This document shows positions 19,258 through 64,000 of a stretch of 64,000 bases of DNA, piece after piece. Source of the stretch: Balanoglossus misakiensis (Eukaryota > Animalia > Hemichordata); the NCBI GenBank assembly GCA_040954595.2, contig CM082582.2, forward strand, positions 3,146,303-3,210,302, given 5' to 3'. How positions within the stretch are numbered: position 1 is the stretch's first letter; the number at the start of each line of letters is the position of its first letter. The notes under the pieces are model-generated. The model made no database searches and was not told the origin of the DNA. It saw only the letters and a program-made list of their open reading frames with translations. The translations under genes were made by a program, and so were the position numbers.

Positions 19258-19967
19258 CTAAAGAATGTCTCTCATATCATAAACAAATTTCAATCCATGT
19301 TCCTCGGCTTTCTCAGTAACTTCTCGATCAAAAAATTCATTTTGCGCGACAGTGAAGTGTTTTCCAATCACCGACTTGACCTCTGCGCTGGTGACGAGCA
19401 TCATCTGGAAAGGAATGTGTGTCCGCGCCAACCATTGAATATTGACAGAAGATTTCCTTCCCTTGACTCATTGCAACAAAACTGCAACTTTCAGCCACTT
19501 TTTCAATTTTCTCATCTGACTTCGGACGATCCAGAAAATCTGTGATCTGGCACAACACAGATTTCAAATCTCTCTTCATATCTTCAAATGTGACGTGTAC
19601 TACGTAGCACATTGTCCTGCTGGGCGTATCGTTTCCATGCCAACACATGATCCAACCAAGAGCCGTACAACACTCTTCCCTGAACGAAAGCCTTAACCCA
19701 GTCGTTCCAATTCAAATCCATCTCGATCCAGGGATTGATTTCATATAGCTATAATACGACACGCATACATCTTTTGGATTTCTGGCCACTGTGGTATAAC
19801 TTTACACATCTTTTCACCTTTGACCCATGACTTTGAGAATAACTGTAGAAGAAGATGGCAGAATAATAACCTTGGTGACGTCATCTTCTGCAAGGATGTC
19901 TTCACAGCCTTTGCATGTTCACCATACATACCAGGTATATGATCAGCGTCCTCGTAAAGTAGGTCAA
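19258..19967 (-). pseudogene. Cytosolic sulfotransferase, 3' part (intronless, frameshifted)
   Basis: SPRLLFCHL, NWNDWVKAFVQGRVLYGSWLDHVLAW, VTFEDMKRDL...QITDFL, CSFVAM, RRGQVGDWK motifs spread over several frames. Confidence 0.85.
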
Positions 19968-20183
19968 CGCCAACGTGGACACAACCACTGTGTTGTCAGA
20001 CACCAGCAAAGACTACAACCAGGCACGTAAGGTCAATAACACGAACGGTTTTATTACGAACGCACTACGCCGCTAGTTACAAGATGGCGGACGAGCAGAG
20101 AGAGAGAGACACACGCCACAGGCAAAGCATTGTGGGTAGTGAGGCCAAGGGTCAAACCACTAACAACTAACATAGTGGCGCAA
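19968..20183 (-). repeat. 3' LTR of element A
   Basis: Direct repeat of 34511-34726, preceded on the minus strand by purine tract aaaaaaaaaggacagaagaaaagtgg. Exact termini ambiguous by a few bp. Confidence 0.88.
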
Positions 20184-20529
20184 CCACTTTTCTTCTGTCC
20201 TTTTTTTTTGAAGAAAAACAATGAACATGAGCAGAATCTGCGGAGGCACATTGCGATGCCAGGGTAAACTCAATAAAGCAGAAACTAAACAGTTTCACAT
20301 GATGAAGTAGACAAAGTGGCAATAACACAAAAGCATGGAAAAACTGTCCCCAAATACAAATATGAAGAAATAGGTGCAAACTGTCCCAAAATAAAGTCCT
20401 GTAAGTCCTTTGGGGTACGACATCCGGCCTTTCAGCTGCCGCTCCGTCTGGCTGGTCAAGTGGGGGGATGGTGATTTTAGGTGAAAGGCCACACCCGTCA
20501 GTCTAGTACAAAGGTGGAGGTGACAACGT

Positions 20530-21165
20530 CTATGTAATGCCAACAACCAAGTAACAGTCACGGGGCTGTATTTTCCTGTGATCTGAACGGGGGTAGACCA
20601 GGTCGTCTACATCAAGTGCAGGCGCCGCTGTAAAAATGTCAAGTGGAGCCTTCGTGTATTCACTGAACTGGTGGTCACCGAGATGCATAGTGCGCAGATC
20701 GCCTATCTGCTTGTGGTTGAAGATGGGTAGCTGAGTGTGGTCCAACTGATCCGCTTGCATCCGTATCGTATGTGTAGGCCGACCTGCGTTGACATAAACA
20801 TTGGCAACAGCAAGCAACGGTAGTGTGACGGTGGCACGAAGTGGGACTAGACGTACAAGCTCGTCCTGGAATTCTTGGATGGCTCTGTCGGATGCTGGAT
20901 TCCTGTTTCGGTTTTCAACACACCCCATTTGGACGATGAGGTTGTGCAAGCCGCCTTTTGTTGAAGTCGCAACTCCCGGAGCAGGGTTAGGTCTGATGAC
21001 TGTGGGCAGGCCGTCAACTGGGTCTACCTCCTGCTTGGTGACGTCAGTGGCAAAGACAATGCCAACGATCTCTGGATCTTCCGGATGAGCAACCACACCT
21101 GTTCCCTCATGGATCTGGTGTTGAGGTACTTTCAACTGCTCGTGCGAGTACGGGGGACGCTGGCC
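20530..21165 (-). pseudogene. Degenerate pol remnant of element A (pre-RT segment fused to the distal integrase region)
   Basis: VIRPNPAPG...NRNPASDRAIQEFQDEL...DQLDHTQLP...DDLVYPRSDHRKIQPRDCYLVVGI resembles a Gypsy integrase C-half. No RT YxDD or RNase H motifs anywhere in A. Confidence 0.65.
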
Positions 21166-21169
21166 ATTG

Positions 21170-21464
21170 TGTGGTATTTCTGGAGAAAACCTCACCTGGA
21201 GTATACCAGTGCCTGGAGATTCCTGTGGAAATGCTGATTAGGTGGTGACCCTTATGTGACCTGTCACGTGACCCCGTGAAGGTTATATATAACACCGTGG
21301 GACCGGAAGTCGGGGTTCTCTCTCGTCTCGTCCATGGTCTGGTGCTACACGCTCTACTTGTTCTGGACCCGGACCGCCTGCACGCACTCAACTAGGTGAG
21401 TATGCGTTACGGGCATTGACTAGGGAAACCTTTCCGTGGCGTTGAAGTTGGGGAAAACGCTACA
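21170..21464 (+). repeat. 5' LTR of element B (295 bp)
   Basis: tgtggtatttc...cgctaca; TATA-like ttatatataa at ~21283. Confidence 0.97.
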
Positions 21465-21465
21465 T

Positions 21466-21479
21466 TGGCGCTGCGAGCA
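21466..21479 (+). promoter_or_regulatory. Primer binding site of element B (tRNA-Ser-like)
   Basis: TGGCGCTGCGAGCA one base after the LTR. It is complementary to a tRNA 3' end ...TGCTCGCAGCG-CCA; the tRNA identity is from memory. Confidence 0.8.
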
Positions 21480-21512
21480 ACTTCTTCCCTGCGGAATTTT
21501 TGAGGGGATTGG

Positions 21513-21518
21513 GTAAGT
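21513..21518 (+). promoter_or_regulatory. Candidate splice donor in the leader of element B
   Basis: tgg|GTAAGT consensus ~35 nt downstream of the PBS. A second candidate tag|GTGAGT lies at ~21396 within the LTR. Confidence 0.55.
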
Positions 21519-23118
21519 ACAAGACTCATTGTTTTCGGGCGGAAAAAGTAAAAAGAAAAAAATTACCCGGAGACTGTGGTGTTTCTGTACTGGTGCTCAT
21601 CGGTGAATTTGATTAGCTTGTGTGGTTTACCTGAGTGAGCAGATTTTCCGTATCACCAAAGGATCTCAAGTAATTGTGTTGGAAGTGAAAGTGTGTGCGG
21701 GAATTTGTTTATTTAGTTTCGGGTTTTTTTGTACTTGAGTTTGGGAATTCTTGTCATTCGTGAAACCTAGAACTTTCCGGTGCAGCGTTTGTGTGTAGTT
21801 TTTCATGCGTTTTGTTGAATTAAATCTTCCTGTGTCGGCATTTGTGTGGATTATTTACTGCATTTTTGTCGGACGATACGGTCGCTGGGACGGCGATTGT
21901 GGCGGTTTCGTTTCATTGCTTCGCACTGGTTTTTCTTTGGCGATACTGGCGAAACTACGTCTTTATTGGCCGGGAATTTCCTTTGTGCTGTAGGTGTTTG
22001 CGGAGCCGTTTTCAATTATCTATCGGTACCGTTCTCGGCGTTTCTTGTGCGACCTTTTGTATTTTTGTTCTCGGGGTTTTTCTTCAAGAAAACACCTGTA
22101 GCGGGAGCGCGGCATTTGTATATTGGAGGAATTCTTTGGGGACATCTGTGCAGTTTGTCGTACGGTTACGTGTCGGGATTATTTTTGAAAGCATTTCGCT
22201 GAGAGATTGCATAACATTTGTGGAGCGGGAATTTTTCTTTGAATAGCGTTTGACGCGGGAATTCGATCATTCTTGTGCAAATTTACCTACCACCTGGTTA
22301 TTTGAATTTTAGTTTGAAGCGTTGACTCTGTTGTTACTGGATATCTTCGTTATTGTTGCATATTTCTGGGATAGCTTAGATATTTCCAGTACTAAAAAAA
22401 AAAAAAAAACGACCAACAAATATAACAGGTCGAAAATATTGTTACGTTCTAGTAATAAAAAAACGACAAATATAACAGGTCAATAATTTCTTCTATCACT
22501 GAGAGCATTTTCCTTGTGGGTCATTTGGGTAATATTGCAGTAGTGATAATTTGTGGTCATCCTGAAAGTGGGTGATCGCATATCACAATTACTGCAAGGA
22601 TTCAGGAGATTTCTACCACTGTTAGGGTCCTGCAATTCGTGCTTGTATCCAAGAGTGTAGGAATTTTTTCTGTGCAATTGTTTCGGCCTTTTTGAAAAAA
22701 AAAAGTCTTCCCACGAGAAAAACAGCACTTGTCCCTTTTCCCTGTACTGAATTTATCGAGTTTCTTCAAGTTTTTGAGAAGCTTTGAAATTGATTAGAAT
22801 TGGGGATTTGGATCTGTGTCGTCACTTTATTCAAGTTCGTGGAGAAATCTGTGGCTTGTGTGATTGCATAGTGACACTTCGCTTGATTTTTCCGAATTTC
22901 TTGGCTTTTTGGCGACTTGTCTAAATTTAGATTGAATTCAGTTAGTAACATATAGATTTTCCAAGTTTACTAGTTAGACTTGTGTAAATCTATTAACTGA
23001 TAGTTTTCTCAAGTTTAAAGAAGATTTCTAGATTTGTTTAAACATATCAGAGGGTAATTTAATTTGCTCAAGTTTTTGCATCCAAGGCTTGTGTAAATTA
23101 AGATTGTGAATTGTGACA

Positions 23119-25152
23119 ATGGCTAAGGTGTACATTAACCACTGTACTTTGGATGAGTTGATTACCATCTATGGGATTGGAAGAGCATCGGCCAAAACCT
23201 TGCTAACTGAACGAGAACGGATGGGAAACCTTACATGGGAACATGTTATGGCCCTGCCCCACATCAGCATCTCGGAAGATTTCAAGGCTCGTGTCGATTT
23301 TTCACCGTTCGGGCCGCCATCCGATGTGGAATTGGAGGATGCAAGCTTCATGGTTTCACCGGCTAAGCTGCCCGAACCTCCAGCAACCCCAAGGTCATCG
23401 CGGAGGGATCCTACCATCGATAACGTGGTAAAGAAGATTGATGAGTTATCCATGCCACCGTCATCAAGGAGGAGTGTTGTGCGTGGTCTGGATGGTCCTG
23501 GGTCGGATGTTGGACAGATGTCATTTGATGATGATTTTGCGTGCGCGGGCCCAGCGGTCATGGTCCCACCAGGGTCTGCAATTGCTGCACCATCCGTCGC
23601 GTTCACTCCAGCATCCGGAACGGTTCCTAGAAGATCACTGCGTACACCACAAGTCACCGGCAGCACTCCACCGATGGAAACGATGACGACCTCTGCGCTG
23701 CCCACTTATGCACGACAATCAGCTCCGGTGGTTAATACCCCATGGTCACATTCTCGTTCGCAATCACCTGTTCCAGCTGCACCAGGAACTGTTGTGACCC
23801 CTTCCGCTTTTCAGCAATCGGTGCCTGTGACTGGACACCCCCGGGGTGTTCCACCATCGGTTCCGTATTGTGGAGAGCGGTCTGGCCCACAAACCTCCTC
23901 TGTCCAGTGGCATTTTGTTCCATCGTTGGGTGGGTATTTTCCTGTCACCCTACCACCGATGGTGGCGCAATCCTATACTGGTCATCCTATAGCTCACCCT
24001 GGAATGCCATCATCATCTGTGCATGGCAGTGCACCGCATACATTCACCCAGGGTTTACATTCATTGGATAGAACAGCTAATCCGCCTATGAATGTTCCGT
24101 CTGCAACTTCGCAGCACTTTGGATCGGGTGACCGGGCATATGGGTTGACACCAGGCATGCTTGCTGGAACATCTTCAAGACAGAATGTTCATTCCGAAAA
24201 TACCCTTCCAAGAATCCATGCACCAAGACATCAGGGGGCAGACGCTATCCAACCCCGGCATTTCCCCAAAAATCTGTATTTTAATGGGGAGGGAAGTTGG
24301 AAATCCTTTGTCATGAGATTTTCCAAATATGCAACTTCCCAGGGTTGGTCAGCCGATGTACGACGTGAGCAACTGTGCTGGTGTCTGGATGGAGAAGCTG
24401 GGGACTGTTACACCATCATTCTGGAGAACGAACCGAATATTCGTTACATGGATCTGTTGCTCAAACTGGAGCAACGCTTTGGTTATAAAGAACTGCCAGA
24501 GACAGCCCATTTGGATTTCCTGCAACAGAAACAGGAACCCAACGAGCCTCTGAACAAATGGGCTGATAGGATCCTAACTGTAGCTACCAACGCATACAGC
24601 AGAGTATCCGATTCGTTTATGATGGAACAGGCTGTTTTACGTTTTTGTCAGGGGTGTATTGACAAGCACGCTGGGCAGTATGCCGCCAATAACTACCCTC
24701 GGTCGATGGAACAGGCTATCAACCTAATAAAATGGCATCAATACAATCGCCGAGCCATTTTTGACCGACCACCACCACCTCGGGTTCGGTATGTAAGCCA
24801 GGATTCTCCTCAGACCGGGGAGGAAGCTATTGAGGTAAAAGCCGTGTCTACCACCCCTCCAGGGACGTCAAAGCAGGCCTCTCCCATTGGTGAACTGGAG
24901 CGACGGATGTCACGAATGGAGCGCCACCTAACGGACCTTACATCTACCTTAAATAAGATGGCTCTTCAACTTGAGGGTTTGGTTAGTGCACGATCAAGAT
25001 CTCCTTCTCCCAGTAGGTCCAACTGCTACCGCTGCGGAAAACCTGGACATTTTCAACGGGACTGCACTGCCTCACCTTCACGTCGCTTCACCTCCCCAGA
25101 GCGTAGGGTATCCTTTTCGGAACCCCCAAACGGGAAGGGGTCCATAGATTAG
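23119..25152 (+). CDS. gag: Gag with N-terminal ComEA-like helix-hairpin-helix, Pro/Ser-rich linker, capsid region and CCHC knuckle
   Basis: INHCTLDELITIYGIGRASAKTLLTERERMG (HhH-like); FNGEGSWKSFVMRF...CLDGEAG...LEQRFG...QEPNEPL (capsid); CYRCGKPGHFQRDC. Confidence 0.93.
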   Translation: MAKVYINHCTLDELITIYGIGRASAKTLLTERERMGNLTWEHVMALPHISISEDFKARVDFSPFGPPSDVELEDASFMVSPAKLPEPPATPRSSRRDPTIDNVVKKIDELSMPPSSRRSVVRGLDGPGSDVGQMSFDDDFACAGPAVMVPPGSAIAAPSVAFTPASGTVPRRSLRTPQVTGSTPPMETMTTSALPTYARQSAPVVNTPWSHSRSQSPVPAAPGTVVTPSAFQQSVPVTGHPRGVPPSVPYCGERSGPQTSSVQWHFVPSLGGYFPVTLPPMVAQSYTGHPIAHPGMPSSSVHGSAPHTFTQGLHSLDRTANPPMNVPSATSQHFGSGDRAYGLTPGMLAGTSSRQNVHSENTLPRIHAPRHQGADAIQPRHFPKNLYFNGEGSWKSFVMRFSKYATSQGWSADVRREQLCWCLDGEAGDCYTIILENEPNIRYMDLLLKLEQRFGYKELPETAHLDFLQQKQEPNEPLNKWADRILTVATNAYSRVSDSFMMEQAVLRFCQGCIDKHAGQYAANNYPRSMEQAINLIKWHQYNRRAIFDRPPPPRVRYVSQDSPQTGEEAIEVKAVSTTPPGTSKQASPIGELERRMSRMERHLTDLTSTLNKMALQLEGLVSARSRSPSPSRSNCYRCGKPGHFQRDCTASPSRRFTSPERRVSFSEPPNGKGSID

Positions 25153-25183
25153 GCCTGGAGGTGACCCCCAGATCGACAGGCCA
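25125..25183 (+). promoter_or_regulatory. -1 ribosomal frameshift signal (slippery heptamer plus putative pseudoknot)
   Basis: C CCA AAC in gag phase at 25125-25131; pol is in the -1 frame; stems GGGGTC/GACCCC and GGCCTG/CAGGCC cross each other. Confidence 0.7.
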
Positions 25184-28100
25184 CCACCATCATAGTGATG
25201 TTATCCCTTCATCCATCCAAAAGAGCGGGGTGTTTCCTCCAGAGGTAACTCGGAAGGAGCGCCACGTTTTGAGGGTGGTAGGAGACGGTAACATTGCGTT
25301 GTCTTCCGTAGATGGGGTTAACGATTCACATGAATTGTTAACTATTTGTCAATTGCGTTCCGGTAAAATGTACCGCGTTCCACTTCGGATACAAGGACAT
25401 GATACCCAAGCGATAATTGATACCGCTTCGGAAGTAACTATCATTTCTGATAAGTTCTTTGACCAGTTAGATGTTAAACCGCCCATTATTAACCAAGTGA
25501 CCTTCCAAACTGCCGGAAGGGAGCTGAAGATGAAGGGGTTTTTGGTGGGTCCGGTTGACATCCGATTGGGAAAAGGTCTATACTCGGAGCGAGTCTATGT
25601 GGCTCCCATTGAGGACGAAATGCTCCTAGGCATCGACTTTGTTAGGTCTCATGGGGTCCATCTAGATTTACTCAACAACATTCTTCGGATTGAGGATGAA
25701 ATAATACCCTTGCAGTTTGGTACAGTAATAGGGGAACCCAAGATTGCAAAAGTCTCTCTCTTGCATAGGGTAAGGATCCCACCAAATACTGTAATTAGAC
25801 TGCCATGTGCTATGCGTGACTCCATGTCTGAGTATGTGGTTGAATCAACAGAAGATCTACTGGTAATGATACCACGTACACTCCATTCAGGAGGACAGAC
25901 ACCTAAAGTTTGCATAGTCAACCCTACTGATGAGTTTGTGACCCTTCGAAGAGGCAAGGTCATCGCTCATGCGGTAGAGGTAGGGGCTGTTTCACTTCAA
26001 CCTGTCGAATCCAAGGAAAGGAACGGAGAAACAGAGAAGGACGAAATCCCTGTACATCTTCATGATCTCTTGGAGAGGTCTGGCATCCATCTACAAGATG
26101 AAGAAAAAGCTCGAGTGCAAGATCTACTTATCGAGTATGAAGATGTGTTTGCCAAAACCGAATTTGATCTGGGGAACTTCACCACCATTCAACATCAGAT
26201 CGACACCGGTGATTCCAAGCCAGTCAAACAGCGGATGCGCCGGACACCCATGTGTTTTGCGCAGGAAGAAGAGGCACATCTTCAAAAGATGCTAGATGCA
26301 GGGGTTATCCAACCTTCTATTTCCGAGTGGGCTTCTGCTCCAGTACTAGTGAGAAAACGTGATGGGGGAGTTCGTTGGTGTGTCGATTATCGTGCATTAA
26401 ATGATCACACGACCAAAGATGTCTACCCTCTACCTCTGATTGAAGAATGTCTGGATACATTGGCAGGACAAACGTGGTTTTCAAAATTGGATGCAAACTC
26501 AGCATATTGGCAGATTAGAATCAAGGAAGAAGACCAGAAGAAAACTGCCTTCACCACCAAATATGGTTTGTTTGAATTCAATAGAATGCCCTTTGGTCTC
26601 TGCAATGCTCCAGCCACATTCTCCAGAGTCATCAATCTAGTACTCAGAGGTCTTACTTGGGATATCGTGTTAGCCTTCATTGATGACATTCTCGTGCTTG
26701 GGACTTCATTCGACAACCATCTGACCTACTTGCGGAAAGTTTTTGATCGACTGCGTCACTACCAACTAAAACTGAAACCCAAGAAGTGCGATCTCTTTCA
26801 AAGAGAAGTCGTCTTCTTGGGGCGCATCATCAGGAACGGCAATGTGGAGTTGGATAAAAGTTCCATTCGAGCAGTCAAGGATTGGCCCGTACCTAAGAAC
26901 ACCAAAGATGTTGAGAAGTTTTTGGGATTGGCCAATTACCATCGAGCTTTCATCAAAGATTTCGCTAATACGGCTGTTCCTCTCTATGGTGTTACCGGGA
27001 AAAGAGCTTTCATTTGGGGTCAGGAACAACAGCAGGCTTTTGACACATTGAAAGAGGCTTTGTTGTCTGCCCCTGTGCTCGCTTTGCCCAGCAACACCGA
27101 TCCTTTTATTTTAGATACCGATGCATCGGACTTCGCCATTGGAGCTGAATTATTGCAATTGCAGAATGGGGAGGAAAAAGTAATTTCTTATGGAAGTTAT
27201 GCCCTTACCCCTGAGCAACGACGCTATTGTACTACCAGGAAGGAGCTGCTAGCAGAGGTACGGTTTACTCGCCAGTACCGTCATTTTCTGTTGGGGAACC
27301 AATTTACTATCAGAACCGACCATAGCAGTCTTGTCTGGCTCCTACGGTTCAAGGACCCCCAAGGACAACTGGCGAGGTGGCTGGAAGAACTTAGCCAATA
27401 CAACATGACCGTACAACACCGACCTGGGAAGAAGCACAGTAACGCCGATGCTTTATCACGCCAGCCCCATGGTGAAGTTTGCTGCGATTTTTCCATCGAA
27501 GTTAGACCAGGAAATCTACCCTGTGGGGGATGTTACTACTGTACTCGTGCACATGACAATTGGGCTCGTTTTACCAGTGATGTGGATGATGTAGTACCAC
27601 TAGTCTCATTTCCTTATCAGGGCAAGGACACCGAATCGACCCTCAAGGTTGCTCAACTGCAAGTCACCAACCAGTTTCCAAAATGGCCATGGGAATCGGA
27701 TTTCATCTGCTGGGATCCTTTATCTCCTGAGGATGGTACTATTAGTGACCTGGATACTATGTACCCCTCAGTTGAGATAATTAAAACCGTATCCTCCCCA
27801 AAATGTTGTGTTGTTACACGGTTTCACCAAGACACCCAAGGCAGCACCTTTTTGGGGTATACGACCAAAGAAATCGGTCAGGCCCAGCAACAGGATGCAG
27901 ATCTGATTTTTCTGTGGCCATGGCTTACATCGAAAGTGGAACCAAGCAGTAATGAGATATTCTTGTCTTCTCCAGCAGCCAAGTATTATTGGATTAACAG
28001 GGATATCTTCTTTATTGAAAATGGGACCATATGGAGGAAACTGGATGACAGTGTGACCCTGGTTGTGCCCAGATCGCTGCAGTTGGAGGTCATGGAGTTA

Positions 28101-29360
28101 AATCACAACATTCCTGCTGCAGGACATCAGGGGATTACCAGGACTCAAGCCAAACTCAGGGAGAAATATTTCTGGTATGGTATGTCTCGAGATATCAACC
28201 GGTTTATTACTTCTTGTAGTGTCTGTGCAACTAGCAAGAAACCTGTGCGTCGATCCCGATTCCCGTTAACCAAGTTCCATGCTGGCGCCCCTATGGAGCG
28301 TGTCCATCTGGATTTCCTGGGCCCACTACCTCAAACAGCACGAGGGAATGAGTGTGTTCTTGTAATGGTTGACCAGTTCACGAAATGGGTGGAGTGCATA
28401 CCACTTCCATCCCAAACCGCGGAAATAACAGCACATGCAGCCGTGGAAAACTTCTTTTCGCGATTTGGTTATCCATTTGAGATCTGCACTGACCAGGGCG
28501 CTAACTTCGAGAGTAAACTGTTCTCCGCAATTTGTGACGTGCTACACATTCACAAGACCCGGACTACACCCTACCGGCCCTCCGCAAATGGACAAGTGGA
28601 GCGGGCCAACAGAAGTATAATGGATGCAGTTCGATGTTTTGTGGACAAAACTCAGCGAAACTGGGATGTGTATCTATCACAAATTGCTGGAGCTCTCCGG
28701 TCCTGTATCAATAGACATACAGGATTCACCCCCAATAAGCTAATGCTTGGTCGTGAAGTCAATCAACCTTCCGACCTCGTATTTGGCTTATCATCAGTCA
28801 AAGGTAAGGATCCGCAGGACCATGTCTGTGAGCTTGAGTCCGCTATCAAGCTTGCGCATGAGATAGCAAGGACCAAACTTCAATCTACCCAAGAAGTAAT
28901 GAAGAGGAATTATGATTTAAGGGTAAACCTTTATTCTTACGAGGTAGGGAATTGCGTTTACATGCTTGAATCTGCAGTAGGAAAAGGGAAAAGCCGGAAA
29001 TTAAGTCGTCCGTGGAAAGGACCTGGGATTATAATCAACAAGTTAACACCATACTTGTATAAGGTAAAATTCCAGCGGGCCATAGTAACTGCCCACCATG
29101 ATCGGCTTAAGCTATGTCGGAGCCGAGACCTGCCCCAATGGGTCATGAGGTATCAAGAAAATCTCAAACGGCATAGTACAGGTAAGGCAGAGATCGCCGA
29201 TGTATCATCGACACTATATTGTGTTTGTCGGAAGCCCTATCGTGGTGAGTTCATGATCCAGTGTGATGCTTGCTCGGAGTGGTACCATGGACACTGCGTT
29301 GGGGTGACGACCAGGGATGCGCGGAGGATTTCTGTTTATACTTGTCCGGCATGTTCTTAA
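25161..29360 (+). CDS. pol: Pol polyprotein: protease, RT, RNase H, integrase, C-terminal PHD finger
   Basis: AIIDTASE (PR); VDYRALN, MPFGL, FIDD (RT); LDTDAS, RKELLA, RTDH (RH); H-x6-H...CSVC, HLDF, TDQG, NGQVER (IN); YCVCRKPY...MIQCDACSEWYHGHCVG...YTCPAC (PHD). No stops in 1399 codons. Confidence 0.97.
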   Translation: MTPRSTGHHHHSDVIPSSIQKSGVFPPEVTRKERHVLRVVGDGNIALSSVDGVNDSHELLTICQLRSGKMYRVPLRIQGHDTQAIIDTASEVTIISDKFFDQLDVKPPIINQVTFQTAGRELKMKGFLVGPVDIRLGKGLYSERVYVAPIEDEMLLGIDFVRSHGVHLDLLNNILRIEDEIIPLQFGTVIGEPKIAKVSLLHRVRIPPNTVIRLPCAMRDSMSEYVVESTEDLLVMIPRTLHSGGQTPKVCIVNPTDEFVTLRRGKVIAHAVEVGAVSLQPVESKERNGETEKDEIPVHLHDLLERSGIHLQDEEKARVQDLLIEYEDVFAKTEFDLGNFTTIQHQIDTGDSKPVKQRMRRTPMCFAQEEEAHLQKMLDAGVIQPSISEWASAPVLVRKRDGGVRWCVDYRALNDHTTKDVYPLPLIEECLDTLAGQTWFSKLDANSAYWQIRIKEEDQKKTAFTTKYGLFEFNRMPFGLCNAPATFSRVINLVLRGLTWDIVLAFIDDILVLGTSFDNHLTYLRKVFDRLRHYQLKLKPKKCDLFQREVVFLGRIIRNGNVELDKSSIRAVKDWPVPKNTKDVEKFLGLANYHRAFIKDFANTAVPLYGVTGKRAFIWGQEQQQAFDTLKEALLSAPVLALPSNTDPFILDTDASDFAIGAELLQLQNGEEKVISYGSYALTPEQRRYCTTRKELLAEVRFTRQYRHFLLGNQFTIRTDHSSLVWLLRFKDPQGQLARWLEELSQYNMTVQHRPGKKHSNADALSRQPHGEVCCDFSIEVRPGNLPCGGCYYCTRAHDNWARFTSDVDDVVPLVSFPYQGKDTESTLKVAQLQVTNQFPKWPWESDFICWDPLSPEDGTISDLDTMYPSVEIIKTVSSPKCCVVTRFHQDTQGSTFLGYTTKEIGQAQQQDADLIFLWPWLTSKVEPSSNEIFLSSPAAKYYWINRDIFFIENGTIWRKLDDSVTLVVPRSLQLEVMELNHNIPAAGHQGITRTQAKLREKYFWYGMSRDINRFITSCSVCATSKKPVRRSRFPLTKFHAGAPMERVHLDFLGPLPQTARGNECVLVMVDQFTKWVECIPLPSQTAEITAHAAVENFFSRFGYPFEICTDQGANFESKLFSAICDVLHIHKTRTTPYRPSANGQVERANRSIMDAVRCFVDKTQRNWDVYLSQIAGALRSCINRHTGFTPNKLMLGREVNQPSDLVFGLSSVKGKDPQDHVCELESAIKLAHEIARTKLQSTQEVMKRNYDLRVNLYSYEVGNCVYMLESAVGKGKSRKLSRPWKGPGIIINKLTPYLYKVKFQRAIVTAHHDRLKLCRSRDLPQWVMRYQENLKRHSTGKAEIADVSSTLYCVCRKPYRGEFMIQCDACSEWYHGHCVGVTTRDARRISVYTCPACS

Positions 29361-29389
29361 TCTATTGTCTTTCTCTTCATTGTCCACAG
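29355..29389 (+). promoter_or_regulatory. Splice acceptor in front of ORF3
   Basis: cttaat (branch-like) + ctattgtctttctcttcattgtcca (polypyrimidine) + CAG at 29387-29389, followed by ac-ATG-g at 29392. Confidence 0.65.
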
Positions 29390-29391
29390 AC

Positions 29392-31761
29392 ATGGCTTCT
29401 TCGTCTCCTCCCCCTGACTCACCCAAGCGCCAATGGAAGGAGGTCGCTCCGACTGGTCCAAGTGCCGCTCGCCAGCGTCTTAGCCAGGAGATATCCGATG
29501 CTACCACCAATGACTTCCTTTGGCAAGTTCGGGAGCTCGTCAATGGCATCGGGGTTATCTCCATGGGACCTGACCGGTCTGTGGCACAGGGCCAGGAGCT
29601 CCTGATCGGTCAATACACCATAGCAGCCCGGAGGAAGCGATGGGGATGGATCAGAGCCCTGCGCAAAGACGTCGATCTTTGCCTTGGTTTTGATCGCGCT
29701 TGGATTGATGAACATCTTCCTCATCCAAATCCAAGAGAAAACACTTGGTCTGCTCCCCAAAGGTCCAAGAAGTCGGCTTCGTATGAAGTTCCACCTGATG
29801 GTATGTACCGGGACTTCCGTCTTCAGGACCCTGAGCAAGTGGAAAGATGGCAGCGGGAGTCTGTGCACTCAGATATCCCGCAAGAGGTGCTGCCCGCAGC
29901 ACCTCTGCCAGACGTCCAACGCGCTCGGGGGCCGGGGGCGGGGGAACTGGTATGTCCACCGGTTGGATCCATACCGGAGGTGCAACCGGTGTTGGTCTCT
30001 GCCCCGGTGGAGGCAGCGCCGGAAGTACTTCCTGCGCCTATGGAAACGGCTAGCCCGCAACGAGGACCAGCGGTGAGGAAGGCTGTGGTGGCAACCGGCC
30101 GGGGTAAGAAGAAGTCCAGTAAAGGCAAGAAGGGGAAGGGGGTTCTGAATCAGCCTCCTGTTGGCTCCGCAGGGAGTCAGCGGGTGCAACGATCTGGCCC
30201 TCTTTCTCTGGTCGGACCCTTTAGTGAGGCTTTTCTCCCGGTTGGTTTAGGGCAACCCCCTCTCGTTCCTCTTCCCCCAGGCTACCTTGGAATACCGCCG
30301 GCAGGTCATGTTCATTTTCCCTTGCCGGAGTGCACGGAGGTAACTGTGGACCTCAGGGCTCATGTCTTGGGTAAGCATGTTCCTCCGGTACTCCGGGGTG
30401 ATCATCCTTTCGAGGCTTGGAGAGTGTTCCATGCTTTGGGCATTCTTCATTCCTGGATTGTTGGGGGATCACCAGGTTCACCGGCCATGAGCTTGTTGGT
30501 TTATTTCAAGCGGTTTGGCCATGTCTTTCTTCCGCCGGTTTCATCGGTAGAGGAAGAGTATTTTCCTTTGATGCATCAGCTATGTAGGGATTTGGGGTGG
30601 GAGCCCATGCTACGGTTTGGACTCCACCCGCCAAATTCTCCCGCTGTACTCGTTCACTGGAGAGTGCTCTTGGTTTTGCTGGGTTTTCTTTCTCCTTTGC
30701 AGAGAGCGGAGTTTGCATGCCTCTTCAGCGGGGATCGGCAGATTCTGCAGGCCAAGAAAACCAAGCAGAGCCATCCTCTGCCCAGGAAGTCGTGCACTGT
30801 GTCCCGATCACAGGAAGTGCAAGATTTGATTGCCTCGGCAACTGCTTCTGCTTCAGGGAGCCAGAGTTTGGATGTAGGTCCTCACCCGACTAAGTCTAAG
30901 GGTAAGGTGAAATGCGTTGGCAGTGCGGCTTCGCCACTAGGAGCCTTTGATTCTCATTTTCATTTGGATCGATTGACTTCTTCGTGGCGGGGTACTGTCA
31001 CCCGCGTGACATCGGACGTAGTGGTCTCCTCCCCTTCCATGCTGAAATCCCTGACGGGGATTCCCGTATTGGGTGGGGTGGAGGTTTACTGTGACCCTAC
31101 GACTTTTCCCACCAATCTTTCCCGGAGTAAGCGTTGGAAAATTGCTGTGGGAATACATCCCAAACAGGCGGCAACACTGACTGGAAATCGACTGGAGAAG
31201 TTCAAGGAATTAATCCAATCCCCTCAGGTGGCAGCAGTTGGGGAGGTTGGGTTAGATTTCTCTGTTGCGGCAGACAAATGGCCCCTCCAGGAGACCGTGT
31301 TCAGGTTGGCCCTTTCCCTGTGTGATCCACGGAAGGTCCTGGTTCTGCACATCAGAGGAGCTACGGGAGATGTGTGTATTGCTGCTGTCGGGCGTAGGGC
31401 TCTTGAACTCGTTCGTGAGTACTGCGCCAGTGAGCAGTTGATCCACTTCCATGGCTTCACTGGAGATCGTTTTGTGGTCGAGTGCTGGATCAGGGATTAT
31501 CCGTACTGTTACTTCAGCTTTAATGCTGGTGTTAACACTTTTTCTACCCCTCAGCTTGAAGCACTCAGGGCGGTGCCAGAGGATCGTCTTCTCTTGGAGA
31601 CGGACTCCCCGTACTTCCCTGTGGCCAATGGTGCCAAGCCCAACACTCCAGCCTTTATCGGAGATGTTGCTGTCCTGGTTGCGGCGCGGCGGGGGATACC
31701 TCTGAACCAACTACTGGAAGCTGCTGCCAACAACACCAGGCGCTTGTACGGCTTCGACTGA
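29392..31761 (+). CDS. ORF3: unknown N-terminal domains plus C-terminal TatD-family nuclease (~30940-31761)
   Basis: TatD motifs in order: FDSHFHLD, AVGIHP, AVGEVGLDFS, LVLHIRG, IHFHGFTG, YFSF, VPEDRLLLETDSPY, NTP, NTRRLYG. Lies between pol and the PPT/3' LTR. Confidence 0.93.
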   Translation: MASSSPPPDSPKRQWKEVAPTGPSAARQRLSQEISDATTNDFLWQVRELVNGIGVISMGPDRSVAQGQELLIGQYTIAARRKRWGWIRALRKDVDLCLGFDRAWIDEHLPHPNPRENTWSAPQRSKKSASYEVPPDGMYRDFRLQDPEQVERWQRESVHSDIPQEVLPAAPLPDVQRARGPGAGELVCPPVGSIPEVQPVLVSAPVEAAPEVLPAPMETASPQRGPAVRKAVVATGRGKKKSSKGKKGKGVLNQPPVGSAGSQRVQRSGPLSLVGPFSEAFLPVGLGQPPLVPLPPGYLGIPPAGHVHFPLPECTEVTVDLRAHVLGKHVPPVLRGDHPFEAWRVFHALGILHSWIVGGSPGSPAMSLLVYFKRFGHVFLPPVSSVEEEYFPLMHQLCRDLGWEPMLRFGLHPPNSPAVLVHWRVLLVLLGFLSPLQRAEFACLFSGDRQILQAKKTKQSHPLPRKSCTVSRSQEVQDLIASATASASGSQSLDVGPHPTKSKGKVKCVGSAASPLGAFDSHFHLDRLTSSWRGTVTRVTSDVVVSSPSMLKSLTGIPVLGGVEVYCDPTTFPTNLSRSKRWKIAVGIHPKQAATLTGNRLEKFKELIQSPQVAAVGEVGLDFSVAADKWPLQETVFRLALSLCDPRKVLVLHIRGATGDVCIAAVGRRALELVREYCASEQLIHFHGFTGDRFVVECWIRDYPYCYFSFNAGVNTFSTPQLEALRAVPEDRLLLETDSPYFPVANGAKPNTPAFIGDVAVLVAARRGIPLNQLLEAAANNTRRLYGFD

Positions 31762-32142
31762 ACGGGTAATCTTTGGGGGGGTCCTAGGCTGCAGTATTGG
31801 TGTTAGACTGTGAAATCCATATTACATCCGGAGCTGCCTTCCATGGGTCTTTCCCTTTTATCTGGGCCCACGCCACTGGGGATATTTTTGCTTGTTGATT
31901 TTTGTTACTTCCGGTCCCTCCCCAGTGGCAGTAAAATTGTGTTTGCCACCATCGTGTAAGAATCGATCTCGACGGTATGGCTCTAAAAAGTCCCCAAAAG
32001 AGAAAAAAGAAAAACGTGCCATATCCCGGATTGATTCGAATCGGCTGTTCTGTCCATAATCATCTAACCATCTATGAAAGGAATCTCCCAGTTTCCAGAG
32101 ATCCACACGGAACCCATCGCTTCAGAAGAAAACAGGGGAGAG

Positions 32143-32437
32143 TGTGGTATTTCTGGAGAAAACCTCACCTGGAGTATACCAGTGCCTGGAGATTCCTGTG
32201 GAAATGCTGATTAGGTGGTGACCCTTATGTGACCTGTCACGTGACCCCGTGAAGGTTATATATAACACCGTGGGACCGGAAGTCGGGGTTCTCTCTCGTC
32301 TCGTCCATGGTCTGGTGCTACACGCTCTACTTGTTCTGGACCCGGACCGCCTGCACGCACTCAACTAGGTGAGTATGCGTTACGGGCATTGACTAGGGAA
32401 ACCTTTCTGTGGCGTTGAAGTTGGGGAAAACGCTACA
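32143..32437 (+). repeat. 3' LTR of element B (295 bp)
   Basis: Matches the 5' LTR except tttccgtggc/tttctgtggc; preceded by PPT agaagaaaacaggggagag. Confidence 0.97.
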
Positions 32438-32441
32438 ATTG

Positions 32442-33215
32442 TGCTGCTGGGGTTGAACCGGACATGTGATCCCTGTAGCCTTGAAAGGATCGGGCTGGAC
32501 GTTGTAGCAACTGACGGTAGGATTGGGCACTTCGTCATTGTGATCTGGTGGCATTCCGTCTTCATCCAGCGTAATGGTGGATGAGCAACATCCTGTTGAC
32601 TGGCTGGTGTTAATGACTGGCTGTGTGTCTGCATGAACATCACCATCTGTTGGCGGTACGAAAACCGGGGATATTTGACTCAAGTGTTCAGTGTGTGGCA
32701 TGGTATGAGATCCGCCTGTCACGTTGGGGGTATGCAAAGCTCTCCCTGACAGTCGCCTGTTGCTAGGGAGCGTGTCAGAACGTGGCTCAAAGGTATACAC
32801 ATTGGTGATGTCCTCTAGTTCCTGTGGCATTTCCACAGCCGTGAAGCCACGCACCATTCTGGACTCCTGAGGTGCTTGGGTGACGATTGTGCGGCGTATG
32901 GCATGTTGTGCCGGACCTGGTGAGCCATATGTATATGTGGACCCACTACCCAGGGTTATTTGTCGCGTGGCTGGGCGCAAGCCGACGTCATTAGCGTCCA
33001 TGAAAGGTATGCCTGCGAGGACTTCCGCATCGAGGCTTTCAGTTACCAGTCCCTCAAACGTAAATTGCGCGTCATCACGGGTGAAAGTGAATCTGGTCTC
33101 GCCGATGACGGTGAGAGCTGAAGACCCATCGGCCTGGCGAGCGGACTGTGAGGTTGCCTGGATAGGAACGCCGAGGCGCTTCGCAGTGGAGAGCCGTATC
33201 ATGTTCGCACTGTGT
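32442..33215 (-). pseudogene. Protease/pol 5' remnant of element A
   Basis: [16 protein letters not shown]...QADGSSALTVIGET...EVLAGIPFM is retropepsin-like, but the catalytic D(S/T)G is missing at the frame change near 33210. Confidence 0.7.
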
Positions 33216-34338
33216 GACGATTGTAGCACGCATCGAGGTAAGGAGACTGGCGCACTTGGACTCTGGATATAGGGGGACGGCACACTTGCACTCTGGATAT
33301 GGAGGGACCAGCCTTCATGTCATCATCTGAAGACTCAGAGTCAAGTCGATGCATTTCGTCAGGGTCATTGTCAATGATACTCGCGATGCGACGCGCCTTG
33401 GTCATGAATCTGCGGTCTTCATCTGGCAAAAACTTGCAAACGCTGAGGAAATGGTCATCAGGGCGCCCCGTTTGTTTACATAATGGGCAGGAACGGTACT
33501 GTCGCCGGTCTCGTTTGGGTTTGGGGGAGTCAACTACACCACCATTGGAGCGATCATCCCAAGTGTCACTATCTTTCTGAGACGTGAAGCGGTTGCGTGA
33601 TGCAGCAGCTCGCAAAACAGTCACCTCCTCCATAGATCTGATTTCATCTAAAAGGGACGATAGGGCCTGTGATATTTCTGGCTTGATTGAAGCAAGTGTA
33701 CGTGTGCGAAGCTCAGTTCCATATCTCTGCTTCACCAATCTTGGTAGGTCTTTATGGATGAGCTGTAGCCATCGAAGGATAATGTAATTTTCCAACGAGG
33801 GGGAGAGTTCTTCATCCTCCATTATTTTGTCTCCGTGGTGGGTGATGCTGCTGTCCTTTCGGAGGAGATTGTCCTCAGCAAAAGCAGTCAATCGCTGAAA
33901 CAGGTCCTCAGGGCGTTCACCTGGCTCGAGGCGAATATCGCAAAAATCGAGTAGATGGGCACCGGTCGACTGAAAACCATAATGGAGGCGGACAGTTTGC
34001 CATATGTTGTCAAGGGATGTGGACTTCTGAACAATGGTGTTACGGGCAATGATGGGACAGAAATTAGCTATCTGTCCAAGCATGAGTTCCAATGCAGATG
34101 CTTTCTGTTGTGCAGTACGGCGTTTGGGAGTTGGAACAGGTTCCCCATCATCTGTAAATCCTCTATGAACGACGGACTTGGATTTCTTTCCCCATGTGGC
34201 GCCCTCTTCCAGGAAAGGGGAGAAATTAGTGTCCAGGGACAAAGTATAAATCAAGTTCTGGCGCCAACTCTCAAATGATGTAATAGTTTCAGACTTACTT
34301 AAGCACCATTGCTTAGGCGCTCGCTGCACGCCCGCCAT
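33199..34338 (-). CDS. gag: Gag-like protein of element A
   Basis: 379-aa open frame from ATG, 160 bp downstream of the PBS; [14 protein letters not shown]-like capsid motif ([16 protein letters not shown]) and [18 protein letters not shown] knuckle variant. Confidence 0.8.
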
Positions 34339-34510
34339 GTTTAAACACTGAGGCAGGTTTTCTCGACGAAATGTGACTTCAAGTTACGCATGTGTAACTC
34401 ACTGGCTGTACACCTATGTGTGTTGAAGTCCTACTGTGACTGAATGTTCAGCAACTGGAAATTACCGTATTGTTGCCGATGACGAGGGTAGATGATCGAC
34501 GCTGCCACCA

Positions 34511-34726
34511 CGTCAACGTGGACACAACCACTGTGTTGTCAGACACCAGCAAAGACTACAACCAGGCACGTAAGGTCGATAACACGAACGGTTTTATTAC
34601 GAACGCACTACGCCGCTAGTTACAAGATGGCGGACGAGCAGAGAGAGAGACACACACGCCACAGGCAAAGCATTGTGGGTAGTGAGGCCAAGGGTCAAAC
34701 CACTAACAACTAACATAGTGGCGCAA
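34511..34726 (-). repeat. 5' LTR of element A
   Basis: Direct repeat of 19968-20183, followed on the minus strand by PBS TGGTGGCAGCG. Confidence 0.88.
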
Positions 34727-34955
34727 GGCGCACTGTTTTCTTTGTGGCTGGCAGTAAGAAATTGAGGTCACTATACATGCTAGTTAAGGCCTTCAACATC
34801 CAGTATGTTCCTGATTTGATATACGTCACAATGATGATATCGTCGTGTCTTACGTCCCATGTGTCTATCGGATTGGTCTGTACGGTCTCTATGTTATGGA
34901 CACAGTTTATGAAGTAACAACCGTTGTAGAAGAAACCTGGCCATTCCTTCGCCAT
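34727..34955 (-). pseudogene. Cytosolic sulfotransferase, 5' part
   Basis: MAKEW...WDVRHDDIIIVTYIKSGTYW (5'-PSB motif). Joins in frame to DLLYEDAD...SPRLLFCHL at 19967 when element A is removed. Confidence 0.85.
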
Positions 34956-35179
34956 TGTGTTTATTGTACTGTCCAAAGCATGAAGTGAAAAGAACAATTT
35001 ACAGTGCAGACCCATTGACCCTTGCTTGTCAGATAGGCCTAGGAAATATTGAGGGCGCTATTCACTTGTAACATGTCATAGACGATCGTCGCCCTTTAAT
35101 CCACATTCGTCCCAGAGATTTCCTTTTGTATAAACCACGTGGTACGTATTTGATTTAACCAGTGATTGTTATCCTGACA

Positions 35180-35575
35180 GAGGAGCAATAACTGACTACC
35201 GAAAGAATGGTTCCGTCAAGCGAATAACTTTCAAAGAGTTGATGGGCTGGCATCTGGTTTGATGGAGCTCGGTCTGCGAAGAGGTGAAAGGTTGGGACTG
35301 CTAGTTGGAAGGCAATACGAATATGTAGTGGGTTACTTGGGAGCTGTCAAAGCTGGACTGGTCCGTGTTCGACTCGATACATCTCTAAAATCAGAGGACC
35401 TCGCAAAACAGATCACTAAAACCAGATGTGATGTATTGGTAGTGGACAACACTTGTCTTCCCAACATCGCTACGTTAGTTCCTGGAGTGGAGGAAGCGTC
35501 TGGCCTTTATACTCCCAAGCTTCTTCCAAGTGTCCGTTGTTTAATCTGTGTTAGTCCAGTCAATCTACGAGATTT
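35180..35575 (+). pseudogene. AMP-binding (acyl-CoA synthetase) N-terminal fragment
   Basis: ELGLRRGERLGLLV...EYVVGYLGAVKAGLVRVRLD...LAKQITKTRCDVLVVD. No downstream TSGTTG motif or further exons recognised. Confidence 0.6.
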
Positions 35576-37935
35576 GGGCACCCAACCCACCACAAATTGC
35601 AACAGATTTGTTTTTCTTCACAATGCATTTTGGAGAGGTGTCTAGAACAACATATTAAAATGCACCCGAATCCACCTTGTGGAAGTATGTCTAATTGCAT
35701 AAATCTGAAAAAAAAACTTTGCACATTTATTACAAAACTGCATTTGCTACATCCGAAAACAAAGCAACACAAAAATCAACACACACAAAATCAGCGTTAA
35801 CTACGTCATCGACGATGACTTGATACAGTACACCATCCAGCTGGTGCATAGTACTGATACAATTAATGTTACATGTAGTCATATTACAATGATGTAGTAT
35901 GACCACCCTAGCCGGCACATTACCTATAAATATATAATACTTATTTCCTAAAGATGATAATCTGATAAAATTGTGTCAAGAATGTTGCAACACAATTTTG
36001 CAACACAATAAGGCAATAAAGTTTGTTATCTGAACTGAATAGGGAAGATGTTTTCTTTTTTTTCTGAATTTTCTGAATGTTAGTGTTGTGGTAATTATGG
36101 TCAGTCACAGATATAAATCCTACTTCAAATACATACTCTTTCTGTAGCAATTATGACATCAAAGAGACTGTAAAAATACAAATTTGGACCATAGAGAGTG
36201 TTGCACAGATCAAAATATTGGTCTGGGTCACAAAGCAAAATGATTCATTTCCGTATGAGAACCAAAATGCAGAATTGGCCATACCAAAAGAAAATTTTAC
36301 AAGCGGCATTTTTTTTTCTTTTGGTCATCTTCCATTTTATACGGATGGGAAATTTGGGATCAGTCGCCTTCCATCTTTATGTATCTGTGCATTGCATGTA
36401 TGGTATGTATGTGTGTGTGTGTATATATATATGAGTGAATGTTTTTCCATCTTTTATGTAAAATTCAAAGGGAAAGGCCTGGGGACTGTGAGTGCACACC
36501 GGGTAAAAAAGAATTCCACTACATTTGCATTTGAGTCAGTAAGTGTGATACAGTCGAGTTTGAATCCCTGATGGTAATTTGGTGGCTTTATTGGCATTTT
36601 TAATTGAAGAAGTACAATTTGGGGCAAACTTTGTATGTTAATTTCTGGCAAAAATTGCTGCTTGTAAAGTTTTCTTTTAGTATGGCAAACTTATTTTCTC
36701 AGGAATTCCCAATTCTGGATTTTAATTACAAATCCTTCATCTGAGATTAGATTGATATATGGGACATTGTTATATACTGCTGCTGTGAAGGTGGCCATTC
36801 AAATTTCCCTCCGACGAACGTCATTTCCAACATTGCACTCTTTCAGTTATCCCAATTTTCAAGTTACCAAGAGTAAGCCTAAAATTTAATAATCAAGATG
36901 AAGAAACCATATTAAATTGACATTTAGCTTTTTTCAATCGATTTTTTGGTTGGCTGAAATGTACCATGGATCAAACTTGCATATGCACTCATACTTAGGG
37001 TTTATAATACCTATATACATACATCAGTGCATACATCATTATATTATGATTTCCCAACAGTTGCAGCTGATGGAGCTTCAAGATGCTTCAGACCAACTGC
37101 TAAGTTCTATTGATGTACCCGAAACATGTAATTATCTCAAACAGCGCCCTCACCATCAGTATAAATTACGACTCTTTCTTCTTTCTCAATTCAGGATGAT
37201 GAGTCATCATCATAGTATTCTCACATGGATTATAATCGTCGCCTATTTTTCCTTCAGTCGATTACTTTTTATCATTCAAGCGACACATATTAAAACCTGA
37301 TAACTTCTAGCCTTTTCAAAAACACTAATTCTACTAAGCCAAATGAAGTAATGAAGAAATAAATTAATATAAGAAATTGCCACCTGGTCAGTGTTTCCAG
37401 CTGGGGGGGGGATACCCTGTTTTTGAAACACTCGAGGTTAGTGTGTTTTACATGCTCGATATATTATAAGACGCATACAATCACCACCTGAGGAGGTTCT
37501 TGTATAAAATCATAAACATACGCTTCGTGATGACACATTGGCCAAAATTGTAGAAATAAGAAAAGGTCCACTCCCACATATTCTTGGGTGTCTGTGCTTT
37601 TTTCGCAGCGCCCAGGAAACCCTAACAGAGTTTGCACTATGTAACATGACCCAAATGAGGGTTTAATCTACAAATGTTCACTATCAAAAATTATATGTAA
37701 GAAATTGTAAAGTAATTCAAAATACATATGCAGCTATTTGTCGGAATATATCTGTGGAGCATCTCACTTTATGTTGAGCTGTTTAGCGGTACTTAACTGC
37801 ATAAAGACATTGTTCGGTCTAAATCTGTTATGTAACCCATTTTGACGAGTGTTTTAAAACTCAATTAATTAAATTTTGCTTTGCCTCAAAACTATGCCAT
37901 AATGCTTCATTGCTTTCAAACACTTTGGCTCATAC

Positions 37936-63700: not shown

Positions 63701-64000
63701 CTCCGATATTATTATGACTAAGATCCAAGTGTCTCAGCTCATACATATATTGCATGCGCATCCCTTTACTTAAACTCTCTGTACCAACATCTCCGATATT
63801 ATTATGACTAAGATCCAAGTGTCTCAGCTCATACATATATTGCATTCGCATCCCTTTACTTAAACTCTCTGTACCAACATCTCCGATATTATTATGACTA
63901 AGATCCAGGTGTCTCAGCTCAGTCATATTCTCAATCCCTTTACTTAAACTCTCTGCACCAACATCTACGATATTATTATGACTAAGATCCAAGTGTCTCA
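60732..64000 (-). CDS. LRR array and C-terminus of a second NLR paralog (5' part outside the window)
   Basis: ~35 repeats of the same unit (some 30-aa MRMQYMYEL variants) and the same C-terminal cap ...DIFSKVLSKLQ...SSCSSAGGEE* as copy 1. Confidence 0.9.
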   Translation of the reverse strand, partial: RHLDLSHNNIVDVGAESLSKGIENMTELRHLDLSHNNIGDVGTESLSKGMRMQYMYELRHLDLSHNNIGDVGTESLSKGMRMQYMYELRHLDLSHNNIGDVGTESLSKGMRMQYMYELRHLDLSHNNIGDFGAESLSKGMGKMTWLRHLDLSHNNIGDVGAESLSKGMGKMTWLRHLDLSHNNIGDVGTESLSKGMGKMTWLRYLDLSHNNIGDVGAESLSKGMGKMTWLRHLDLSHNNIGDVGAESLGKGMGKMTELRHLDLSHNKIGDVGAESLGKGMGKMTELRHLDLSHNNIGDVGAESLSRGMENMTWLEHLDLSHNKIGDVGAESLGKGMGKMIELRHLDLSHNKIGDVGAESLSKGMENMTLLEHLDLSHNNIGDVGAESLSRGMENMTGMIHLDLSHNNIGDVGAESLSKGMGNMTGLRHLDLSHNNIGNVGAESLSKGMGNMTELRHLDLSHNNIGDVGAESLGKGMGKMTELRHLDLSHNKIGDVGAESLSKGMVNMTELRHLDLSHNNIGDVGAESLSKLGMGNMTELRHLDLSHNNIGDVGAESLGKGMGKMTELIHLDLSHNKIGDVGAESLSKGIENMTDLRHLDLSHNNIGDVGVESLSKGMGNMTELRHLDLSHNNIGDVGAESLGKGMGKMTELIHLDLSHNKIGDVGAESLGKGMGKMTELRHLDLSHNKIGDVGAESLSKGIENMTDLRHLDLSHNNIGDVGVESLSKGMGNMTELRHLDLSHNNIGDVGAESLGKGMGKMTELIHLDLSHNKIGDVGAESLSKGMGNMTGLRHLYLSHNNIGDVGAESLSRGIGNMTELRHLDLSHNDIGDVGAESLSRGMGNIYELKHLDLSHNNIGDIGAESLSKGMRMQYMYELRHLDLSHNSIGDVGTESLSKGMRMQYMYELRHLDLSHNNIGVVGAESLSKGMGKMTKLLRCLDLSHNNIGDVGAESLSKGMENMTLLRRLDLSHNNIGDVGVDIFSKVLSKLQSSEHLDLGYNNITDRGVINLQFVVDSLQRSPYIDLSHNDIRDMPEHFDKKNIDGLVSDSDESDSDTAAYASKFSRRGSIHSDGHSSAGSSCSSAGGEE

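Follow-up and report, generated by a model that had tools for sequence, protein, structure and literature searches.

The 64,000-nt stretch of the Balanoglossus misakiensis (Hemichordata) genome analyzed here (hereafter, the window; contig CM082582.2, positions 3,146,303 to 3,210,302) carries on its + strand a complete, young Ty3/Gypsy long terminal repeat (LTR) retrotransposon with a third open reading frame (ORF3) that ends in a TatD nuclease domain. The two 295-bp LTRs (21170..21464, with a TATA-like site at 21284, and 32143..32437) both run from TG to CA, differ at a single position and are flanked by the target-site duplication ATTG (21166..21169 and 32438-32441). A primer-binding-site (PBS)-like sequence, TGGCGC.., directly follows the 5' LTR (21465..21483), with a similar sequence after the CA in the relatives L011, L028, L081 and L090, and a polypurine tract (PPT; 32125..32142) precedes the 3' LTR. 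Between them lie gag (23119..25152), with a weak N-terminal helix-hairpin-helix match, a PNMA-like capsid region and a CCHC knuckle; pol (25107..29360), which begins within the end of gag in a different frame and encodes, in the Ty3/Gypsy order, protease, reverse transcriptase, RNase H and integrase, followed by a C-terminal PHD finger; and ORF3 (29392..31761, ATG to TGA, 789 amino acids), located between pol and the 3' LTR. All three frames are open, and the original prediction of a young, intact Gypsy element with a stop-free ORF3 inside both LTRs is thus borne out.

The sole Pfam match of ORF3 is TatD_DNase (PF01026), which aligns along all 253 profile positions with residues 519-787 (E 1.1e-37), and all the metal-binding and catalytic motifs that had been read from the sequence were located, i.e., DSHFH (520), GEVGLD (617), LHIR (652), HGFTG (687) and ETDSP (736). 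The domain (30928..31758, +) has the attributes of Group II TatD enzymes, that is, the HxH signature together with the E, H, H and E-x-D ligands (H522, H524, E618, H653, H687, E736 and D738) and the TIM-barrel fold, and its modeled barrel matched TatD structures in Foldseek searches (E 3e-12; TM score 0.8 to the target). AlphaFold modeling with a 34-sequence alignment returned three confident modules (residues ~23-119, ~304-445 and 513-789) joined by disordered linkers that are highly variable across relatives; the first two modules were reproduced in a run with 77 sequences. The N-terminal module (29458..29748, +) is all-helical, with a generic helical-repeat-like fold, and the middle one (30301..30726, +) combines a CCHH-type zinc-finger motif, whose pattern is present in 152/192 relatives, with a helical domain carrying NSPAxLxHWR. 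Neither has a specific fold match in Foldseek (nothing at E<=0.001); the best VIA match for the N-terminal modules was a generic helical chain (Z 8.4 over 96 residues, with rows covering residues 1-111 only), and the ESM Atlas gave TatD clusters for the nuclease domain only and no useful match for the middle domain. Of the 186 gap-free relatives, 171 retain the full set of seven active-site residues (median column conservation, 0.36), and, judging from the sequence, the family very probably encodes an active nuclease.

While ORF3 occupies the position of env in errantiviruses (e.g., Drosophila gypsy), where env follows pol and is likely expressed from a spliced subgenomic message, it has neither a C-terminal transmembrane anchor nor a fusion-protein domain and is predicted to be a soluble nuclease instead. 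The absence of a membrane anchor had been anticipated and stands, given that the C-terminus is the TatD barrel and the most hydrophobic 19-mer (residues 418-436, Kyte-Doolittle 1.93) is internal, where the model places it in a helix that belongs to the conserved middle domain; the absence of a furin site, also anticipated, does not, since a furin-type RRKR is present at residues 80-83. That motif lies within the folded N-terminal domain and is more likely a nuclear signal than a furin site. Further, ORF3 scores far below every NCBIfam cut-off, including that of the defense protein QatD (NF041926; 75.7 vs. 230 bits), and is not a member of the latter family.

Homologues of ORF3, 450-1200 amino acids long and labelled "uncharacterized" or "tatD", are present in the gene sets of molluscs (Pinctada, Ruditapes, Pecten, Mytilus, Saccostrea, Dreissena, Haliotis and Elysia), the brachiopod Lingula, sea urchins, Acanthaster and the hemichordate Ptychodera, amounting to 221 clusters at E<=1e-30. 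One Acanthaster gene model (P0202) fuses the integrase-PHD region to ORF3, and the earlier suspicion that long "TatD-like" gene models of invertebrates are in fact this ORF3 proved right in molluscs, the brachiopod, echinoderms and the hemichordate. A metagenome scan that used ORF3 motifs only, without any pol motifs, returned 53 loci, 50 of them with a TatD match, although several are near-identical to contigs of the symbiont bin G001 (below) and the independent hosts are thus fewer than the loci. A same-strand integrase/PHD was found upstream in 25 of these loci, and in 21/22 of those with >2.5 kb of upstream sequence (23/26 at 2 kb); the exception, L056, is a truncated piece sharing 93% identity with the L021 TatD. 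That is, ORF3 directly follows pol well beyond the window, consistent with the expectation that it is not a one-off capture.

Among the 185,579 species of GTDB, ORF3-family patterns matched 17 loci, only in three animal-symbiont bins (G001-G003). Twenty contigs were fetched from G001 and G002, of which 15 show integrase/PHD followed by ORF3; of the other five, one has an internal deletion and four are too short. When contigs of the symbiont bins were selected in the reverse direction, by integrase, the best 12 of 150 matches (11 contigs, 55-61% identity) were all on TatD-bearing contigs. These bins (L061-L117; Sedimenticola sp. and Ca. Thiodiazotropha sp.) hold many Gypsy-type contigs, which are likely host DNA; G001 alone has 130 integrase matches, some possibly bacterial, and NCBI annotates the ORF3s of the three bins as bacterial TatD hydrolases. 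Viral contigs yielded only seven distant TatD loci (27-32% identity) or nothing, and BFVD a single TatD, from a giant virus and 20% identical. In an integrase tree of 41 rows, the window element falls inside a 99-supported clade of 20 TatD-bearing elements, with a sister group (L058 and L093) that has a more divergent TatD ORF3 and 16 outer rows without a TatD match, several of which are on contigs too short to exclude TatD.

The integrase and TatD trees were compared for the 22 elements with both domains unbroken (the remainder were dropped for frameshifts, stops or coverage <80%). The two trees have 11 of 19 splits in common, compared to a mean of 0.25 and a maximum of 4 in 10,000 shuffles, and the underlying distances are strongly correlated (Mantel r 0.85, or 0.73 without the long branches L058 and L093; p 1e-4), while the TatD tree is about 2.5 times longer. 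Silent sites are saturated in most of the 32 close TatD pairs listed; among the seven unsaturated pairs tested, four showed a ratio of nonsynonymous to synonymous substitution rates (dN/dS) of 0.12-0.15 (p 0.009 to 3e-32). Hence, ORF3 is shown to co-diverge with integrase and to evolve under purifying selection. It is, therefore, an established accessory gene that selection has preserved in an old marine-invertebrate Gypsy clade, and it is almost certainly a functional cargo throughout that clade.

Where the nuclease domain came from was assessed on a 55-row TatD tree chosen from 287 domains. The 38 family rows group together (support 96/90) and join P0268, P0272, P0264 and P0276 (three TATDN2-like proteins and one other) on a 100/99 branch that stands apart from 10 bacterial and three TATDN1-like rows; placing the family and bacteria in one clade was rejected by the approximately unbiased test (p 0.021; 31 rows, simpler model). 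P0268 and P0272 are long arthropod proteins that match the human TATDN2 row of a published alignment around FCDP (PMC10085689, supplement), and are called TATDN2-like here by that resemblance, their sources using other names. The family profile scores 231 bits against TATDN2-like P0268 vs. 140 against the best bacterial sequence, and the spacing between DxHxH and GxHP is 66-68 in the family, as in TATDN2-like proteins, vs. 57 in 12/12 bacterial sequences. In addition, a CDP-type motif is present in 153/182 family members, and within the above supplementary alignment FCDP occurs once, in the human TATDN2 row only. The family thus has the features of the TATDN2 clade, i.e., an insert after DxHxH with the CDP motif and a long N-terminal extension. 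Among solved structures, a pairwise search ranked bacterial YcfH first (E 5e-16), before TATDN3 and TATDN1; no TATDN2 chain was among the matches.

Like human TATDN2 and medaka Tatdn2, ORF3 is a Group II HxH protein with equivalents of the catalytic E/E/D and a C-terminal TatD domain that follows a long and mostly disordered region (PMC10711561, PMC12709183); unlike them, it is encoded by a retrotransposon, strongly diverged, and equipped with helical N-terminal and zinc-finger/LHWR domains that neither of the two host TATDN2-like proteins showed. TatD/YcfH/YjjV, TATDN1 and TATDN3 share the fold and metal-binding motifs but are stand-alone enzymes of ~260 amino acids without the insert (PMC10085689). 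ORF3 itself sits inside LTR elements and not in a stand-alone chromosomal gene, and it is not a host orthologue. Recent bacterial transfer was also considered and rejected, the GTDB matches being confined to the three animal-symbiont bins, on Gypsy-type contigs. Taken together, the sequence comparisons make it very probable that the nuclease domain was captured from a host TATDN2. In two unnamed proteins, P0264 and P0300, CCHH and LHWR-like motifs accompany a barrel that strongly resembles that of TATDN2; in P0264 these motifs were seen by eye, the middle-domain profile having missed this protein, and it is possible that the two represent an early-branching form of ORF3.

ORF3 is probably translated from a spliced message of its own. 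Across elements, it occurs in each of the three possible frames with respect to pol, which makes readthrough or a fixed frameshift unlikely, and a candidate splice acceptor (29356..29389, +), with a branch-point-like CTTAAT, a pyrimidine tract and a CAG two bases before the ATG, directly precedes ORF3 in the window. A pyrimidine tract and YAG precede the ORF3 ATG in 14/24 elements vs. 66/839 other in-frame ATGs, a contrast that is inflated because the control ATGs lie inside coding sequence. Candidate consensus donors are found in the 5' LTR (first intron base 21396) and at 21510..21518 (first intron base 21513), the latter being a candidate for the ORF3 message, both on the + strand.

Based on these data, we favor, with a probability of roughly 45%, the hypothesis that ORF3 is an RNA-directed nuclease, acting on R-loops or structured RNA, that serves the element in germ cells. 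Under this hypothesis, an old Gypsy clade would have captured a TATDN2-type nuclease domain from its host and would translate it separately, from its own spliced message; the product, which has basic patches and lacks a membrane anchor, would work in trans as a metal-dependent 3' RNase, most likely inside the nucleus. The element might benefit by clearing R-loops at its own loci, or by limiting replication stress in the germ cells that it needs for transposition. An RNA-directed role is favored over DNA clean-up because the domain is TATDN2-type and human TATDN2 degrades R-loop and hairpin RNA, the latter both endo- and exonucleolytically, but has little DNA exonuclease and very weak apurinic/apyrimidinic (AP) activity (PMC10711561). 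Further, loss of tatdn2 in medaka causes R-loops to rise and primordial germ cells to die (PMC12709183). Taken on its own, RNA, including R-loops, as the main substrate has slightly less than even odds. A more elaborate scenario, namely a single ancient TATDN2 capture grafted onto a zinc-finger ORF3 and kept across molluscs, brachiopods, echinoderms and hemichordates as an R-loop-resolving or anti-silencing enzyme, is conceivable, yet we consider it doubtful.

Besides the inflated acceptor contrast and the non-independent metagenome loci mentioned above, it is important to note that several points weigh against this hypothesis or its parts. The TatD tree samples just two arthropod host TATDN2-like sequences and no TATDN3, the family sits on long branches far from TATDN2, such that substrate preference may have shifted, and the captured gene may instead have been a TATDN2 paralogue or a sister lineage. 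Group II YcfH and TATDN3 are single-stranded DNA (ssDNA) exonucleases and AP endonucleases (PMC10085689), and TATDN2 barely cuts plain RNA:DNA duplexes (PMC10711561), which disfavors a role for ORF3 as a second RNase H. The window copy has not kept the first zinc-finger ligand (usually Cys in relatives) and has a non-Cys residue after H687, where 163/190 relatives have Cys. A perfect donor motif was present in just 1/7 relatives scanned. Finally, dN/dS was 0.39-0.45 and not significantly below neutrality in the other three of the seven unsaturated pairs, and the complete relative L098 is without ORF3, i.e., the gene is dispensable in some lineages.

The last two observations would also speak for ORF3 being a passenger that evolves neutrally, or a host gene acquired recently and only once, but the clade-wide presence, co-divergence with integrase, dN/dS of about 0.13 and conserved active site largely refute this explanation, which we regard as highly improbable. 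More serious, albeit still somewhat unlikely, is a DNA-directed TatD, that is, a 3'-5' ssDNA exonuclease/AP endonuclease trimming or clearing aberrant complementary DNA (cDNA) or aiding the repair of integration gaps, in line with the original prediction. The metal ligands are all intact, Group II YcfH, YjjV and TATDN3 have such activities (PMC10085689), and the best PDB sequence and fold matches are of the YcfH type, although no TATDN2 chain is among these matches; however, the nearest host kin are TATDN2-type, with little DNA activity, and ORF3 is encoded apart from Gag and Pol, in a frame that differs among elements, leaving no apparent route into the cDNA-making particle. The three DNA-directed roles put forward in the original prediction (TREX1-like clearing of cDNA, processing of AP sites or gaps, and attack on rival elements) are not favored, the domain being TATDN2-type and TATDN2 having little DNA activity. 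Since TATDN2 lacking its N-terminal region loses R-loop binding and is 7-fold less active (PMC10711561), an assay of the isolated domain (30940-31761) on ssDNA or AP sites could read falsely negative.

Alternatively, ORF3 might counteract silencing, with the RNase trimming or destroying small-RNA precursors, hairpin or double-stranded RNA, or nascent transcripts of the piRNA/siRNA pathways, and the zinc-finger and helical domains acting in recruitment. Such a role would fit the endo- and exonucleolytic cutting of hairpin RNA by TATDN2 (PMC10711561), the TatD tree that is 2.5 times the integrase length together with the highly variable linkers, as in genes in conflict with the host, and the silencing-related role suggested for DEDDy ORF3s (PMC5408684). 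Nonetheless, dN/dS is below 1 in all pairs and Pfam and fold searches of ORF3 found no known silencing-suppressor domain; thus, we consider this explanation unlikely. Human TATDN2 also nicks catenated DNA, and ORF3 could by analogy nick or decatenate circular DNA by-products (LTR circles, autointegrants) or the circles of other elements, but the nicking by TATDN2 rose after removal of the N-terminus (PMC10711561), while the ORF3 family keeps large N-terminal modules, which renders this possibility very unlikely. Hence, an RNA-directed nuclease acting on R-loops or structured RNA remains our preferred hypothesis for ORF3.

The closest parallel as an element architecture is provided by the Juno and Vesta elements of bdelloid rotifers, with DEDDy-exonuclease and GDSL-esterase ORF3s (PMC5408684). 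These are also non-env, putatively enzymatic ORF3s between pol and the 3' LTR with intact catalytic residues, including a predicted 3'-5' nuclease; the fold, however, is DEDDy there and a TatD barrel here, TatD being the only domain found in ORF3, and the rotifer frames are family-specific, recent and without departure from neutrality, whereas ORF3 is old, multi-phylum, co-diverging and under purifying selection. In the searchable literature, that is, outside Repbase Reports, Dfam, GyDB, subscription journals and most supplements, we came across no account of LTR elements that carry TatD. The main texts of three papers on transposable elements (PMC6238403, PMC8556966 and PMC6338049) do not mention TatD, nor does that of PMC6238403, which defines Gypsy clades by reverse transcriptase and RNase H, mention PHD or "third ORF". 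A precedent for the TatD-in-Gypsy layout in the databases is possible.

The TatD element is itself nested in an outer LTR element on the - strand (19967..34726; 217-bp repeats, 98.6% alike), which has gag-like and protease-like frames (by eye) and no reverse transcriptase or integrase matches, and is likely a non-autonomous element that is also young. Contigs of runs X1 and X2 join 21165 to 32438, which corresponds to the unoccupied site in further copies of the outer element; X1 contigs also span pol and ORF3, differing by about 0.4-1%. Because of a possible relationship to the source sample, these two runs are not counted as independent, and runs X3 and X4, with just short pieces at low depth, were left out. 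No second copy of the TatD element was found within the 64-kb window. A joint from 21479 to 28977 in run X1, as well as L083, L023 and L089, represent internally deleted derivatives, in which gag or most of pol is gone and the integrase end and ORF3 are retained. L081 was considered as a second two-LTR insertion and rejected, because its long terminal match takes in the PPT and PBS; it is read as a circular or tandem assembly.

A few features of the related elements are also worth recording. Gag starts with a helix-hairpin-helix DNA-binding-like motif in L098 (2483-2650, E 1.8e-8), which is weak in the window (23119-23230). The integrase-terminal PHD finger (29211-29357), possibly a chromatin-targeting module, is found in nearly all core-clade elements and has no match in the sisters L058 and L093. 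Sister Gypsy lineages carry other ORF3s (L107:6672-7589, L109:247-1386, L111:5306-6055, L114:5761-6513, L112:3-836 and L116:3470-5110), several with N-terminal C2H2 zinc fingers and none with TatD; their homology to the middle domain was examined and is unsupported (best E 0.016). L103 has a 270-amino-acid frame downstream of pol (553-1362, -) without a Pfam match, with a motif that we take to resemble an SGNH/GDSL hydrolase block. Elsewhere in the window, two long 84-bp tandem arrays (45450-48200 and 60880-64000), about 92% alike, have a 28-codon period that suggests C2H2 zinc-finger genes, and exon-like frames outside the nested elements (34710-35645) presumably resemble, by eye, sulfotransferase and acyl-CoA synthetase.

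In conclusion, our results extend the small set of enzymatic ORF3s known from LTR retrotransposons by another nuclease fold, unrelated to the first, and, unlike in the rotifer cases, show long-term selection on such an ORF3. As regards annotation, many genes labelled "TatD" in invertebrates are ORF3s of retrotransposons, and the "TatD family hydrolase" entries of three symbiont bins lie on Gypsy contigs, which probably represent host DNA. For structure-function studies, the family offers hundreds of naturally occurring TATDN2-type enzymes; it also provides a testable link between LTR retrotransposition and R-loop/RNA metabolism in germ cells. If the hypothesis favored here is true, this would be a retrotransposon that brings its own tool for the maintenance of the germ-cell genome.

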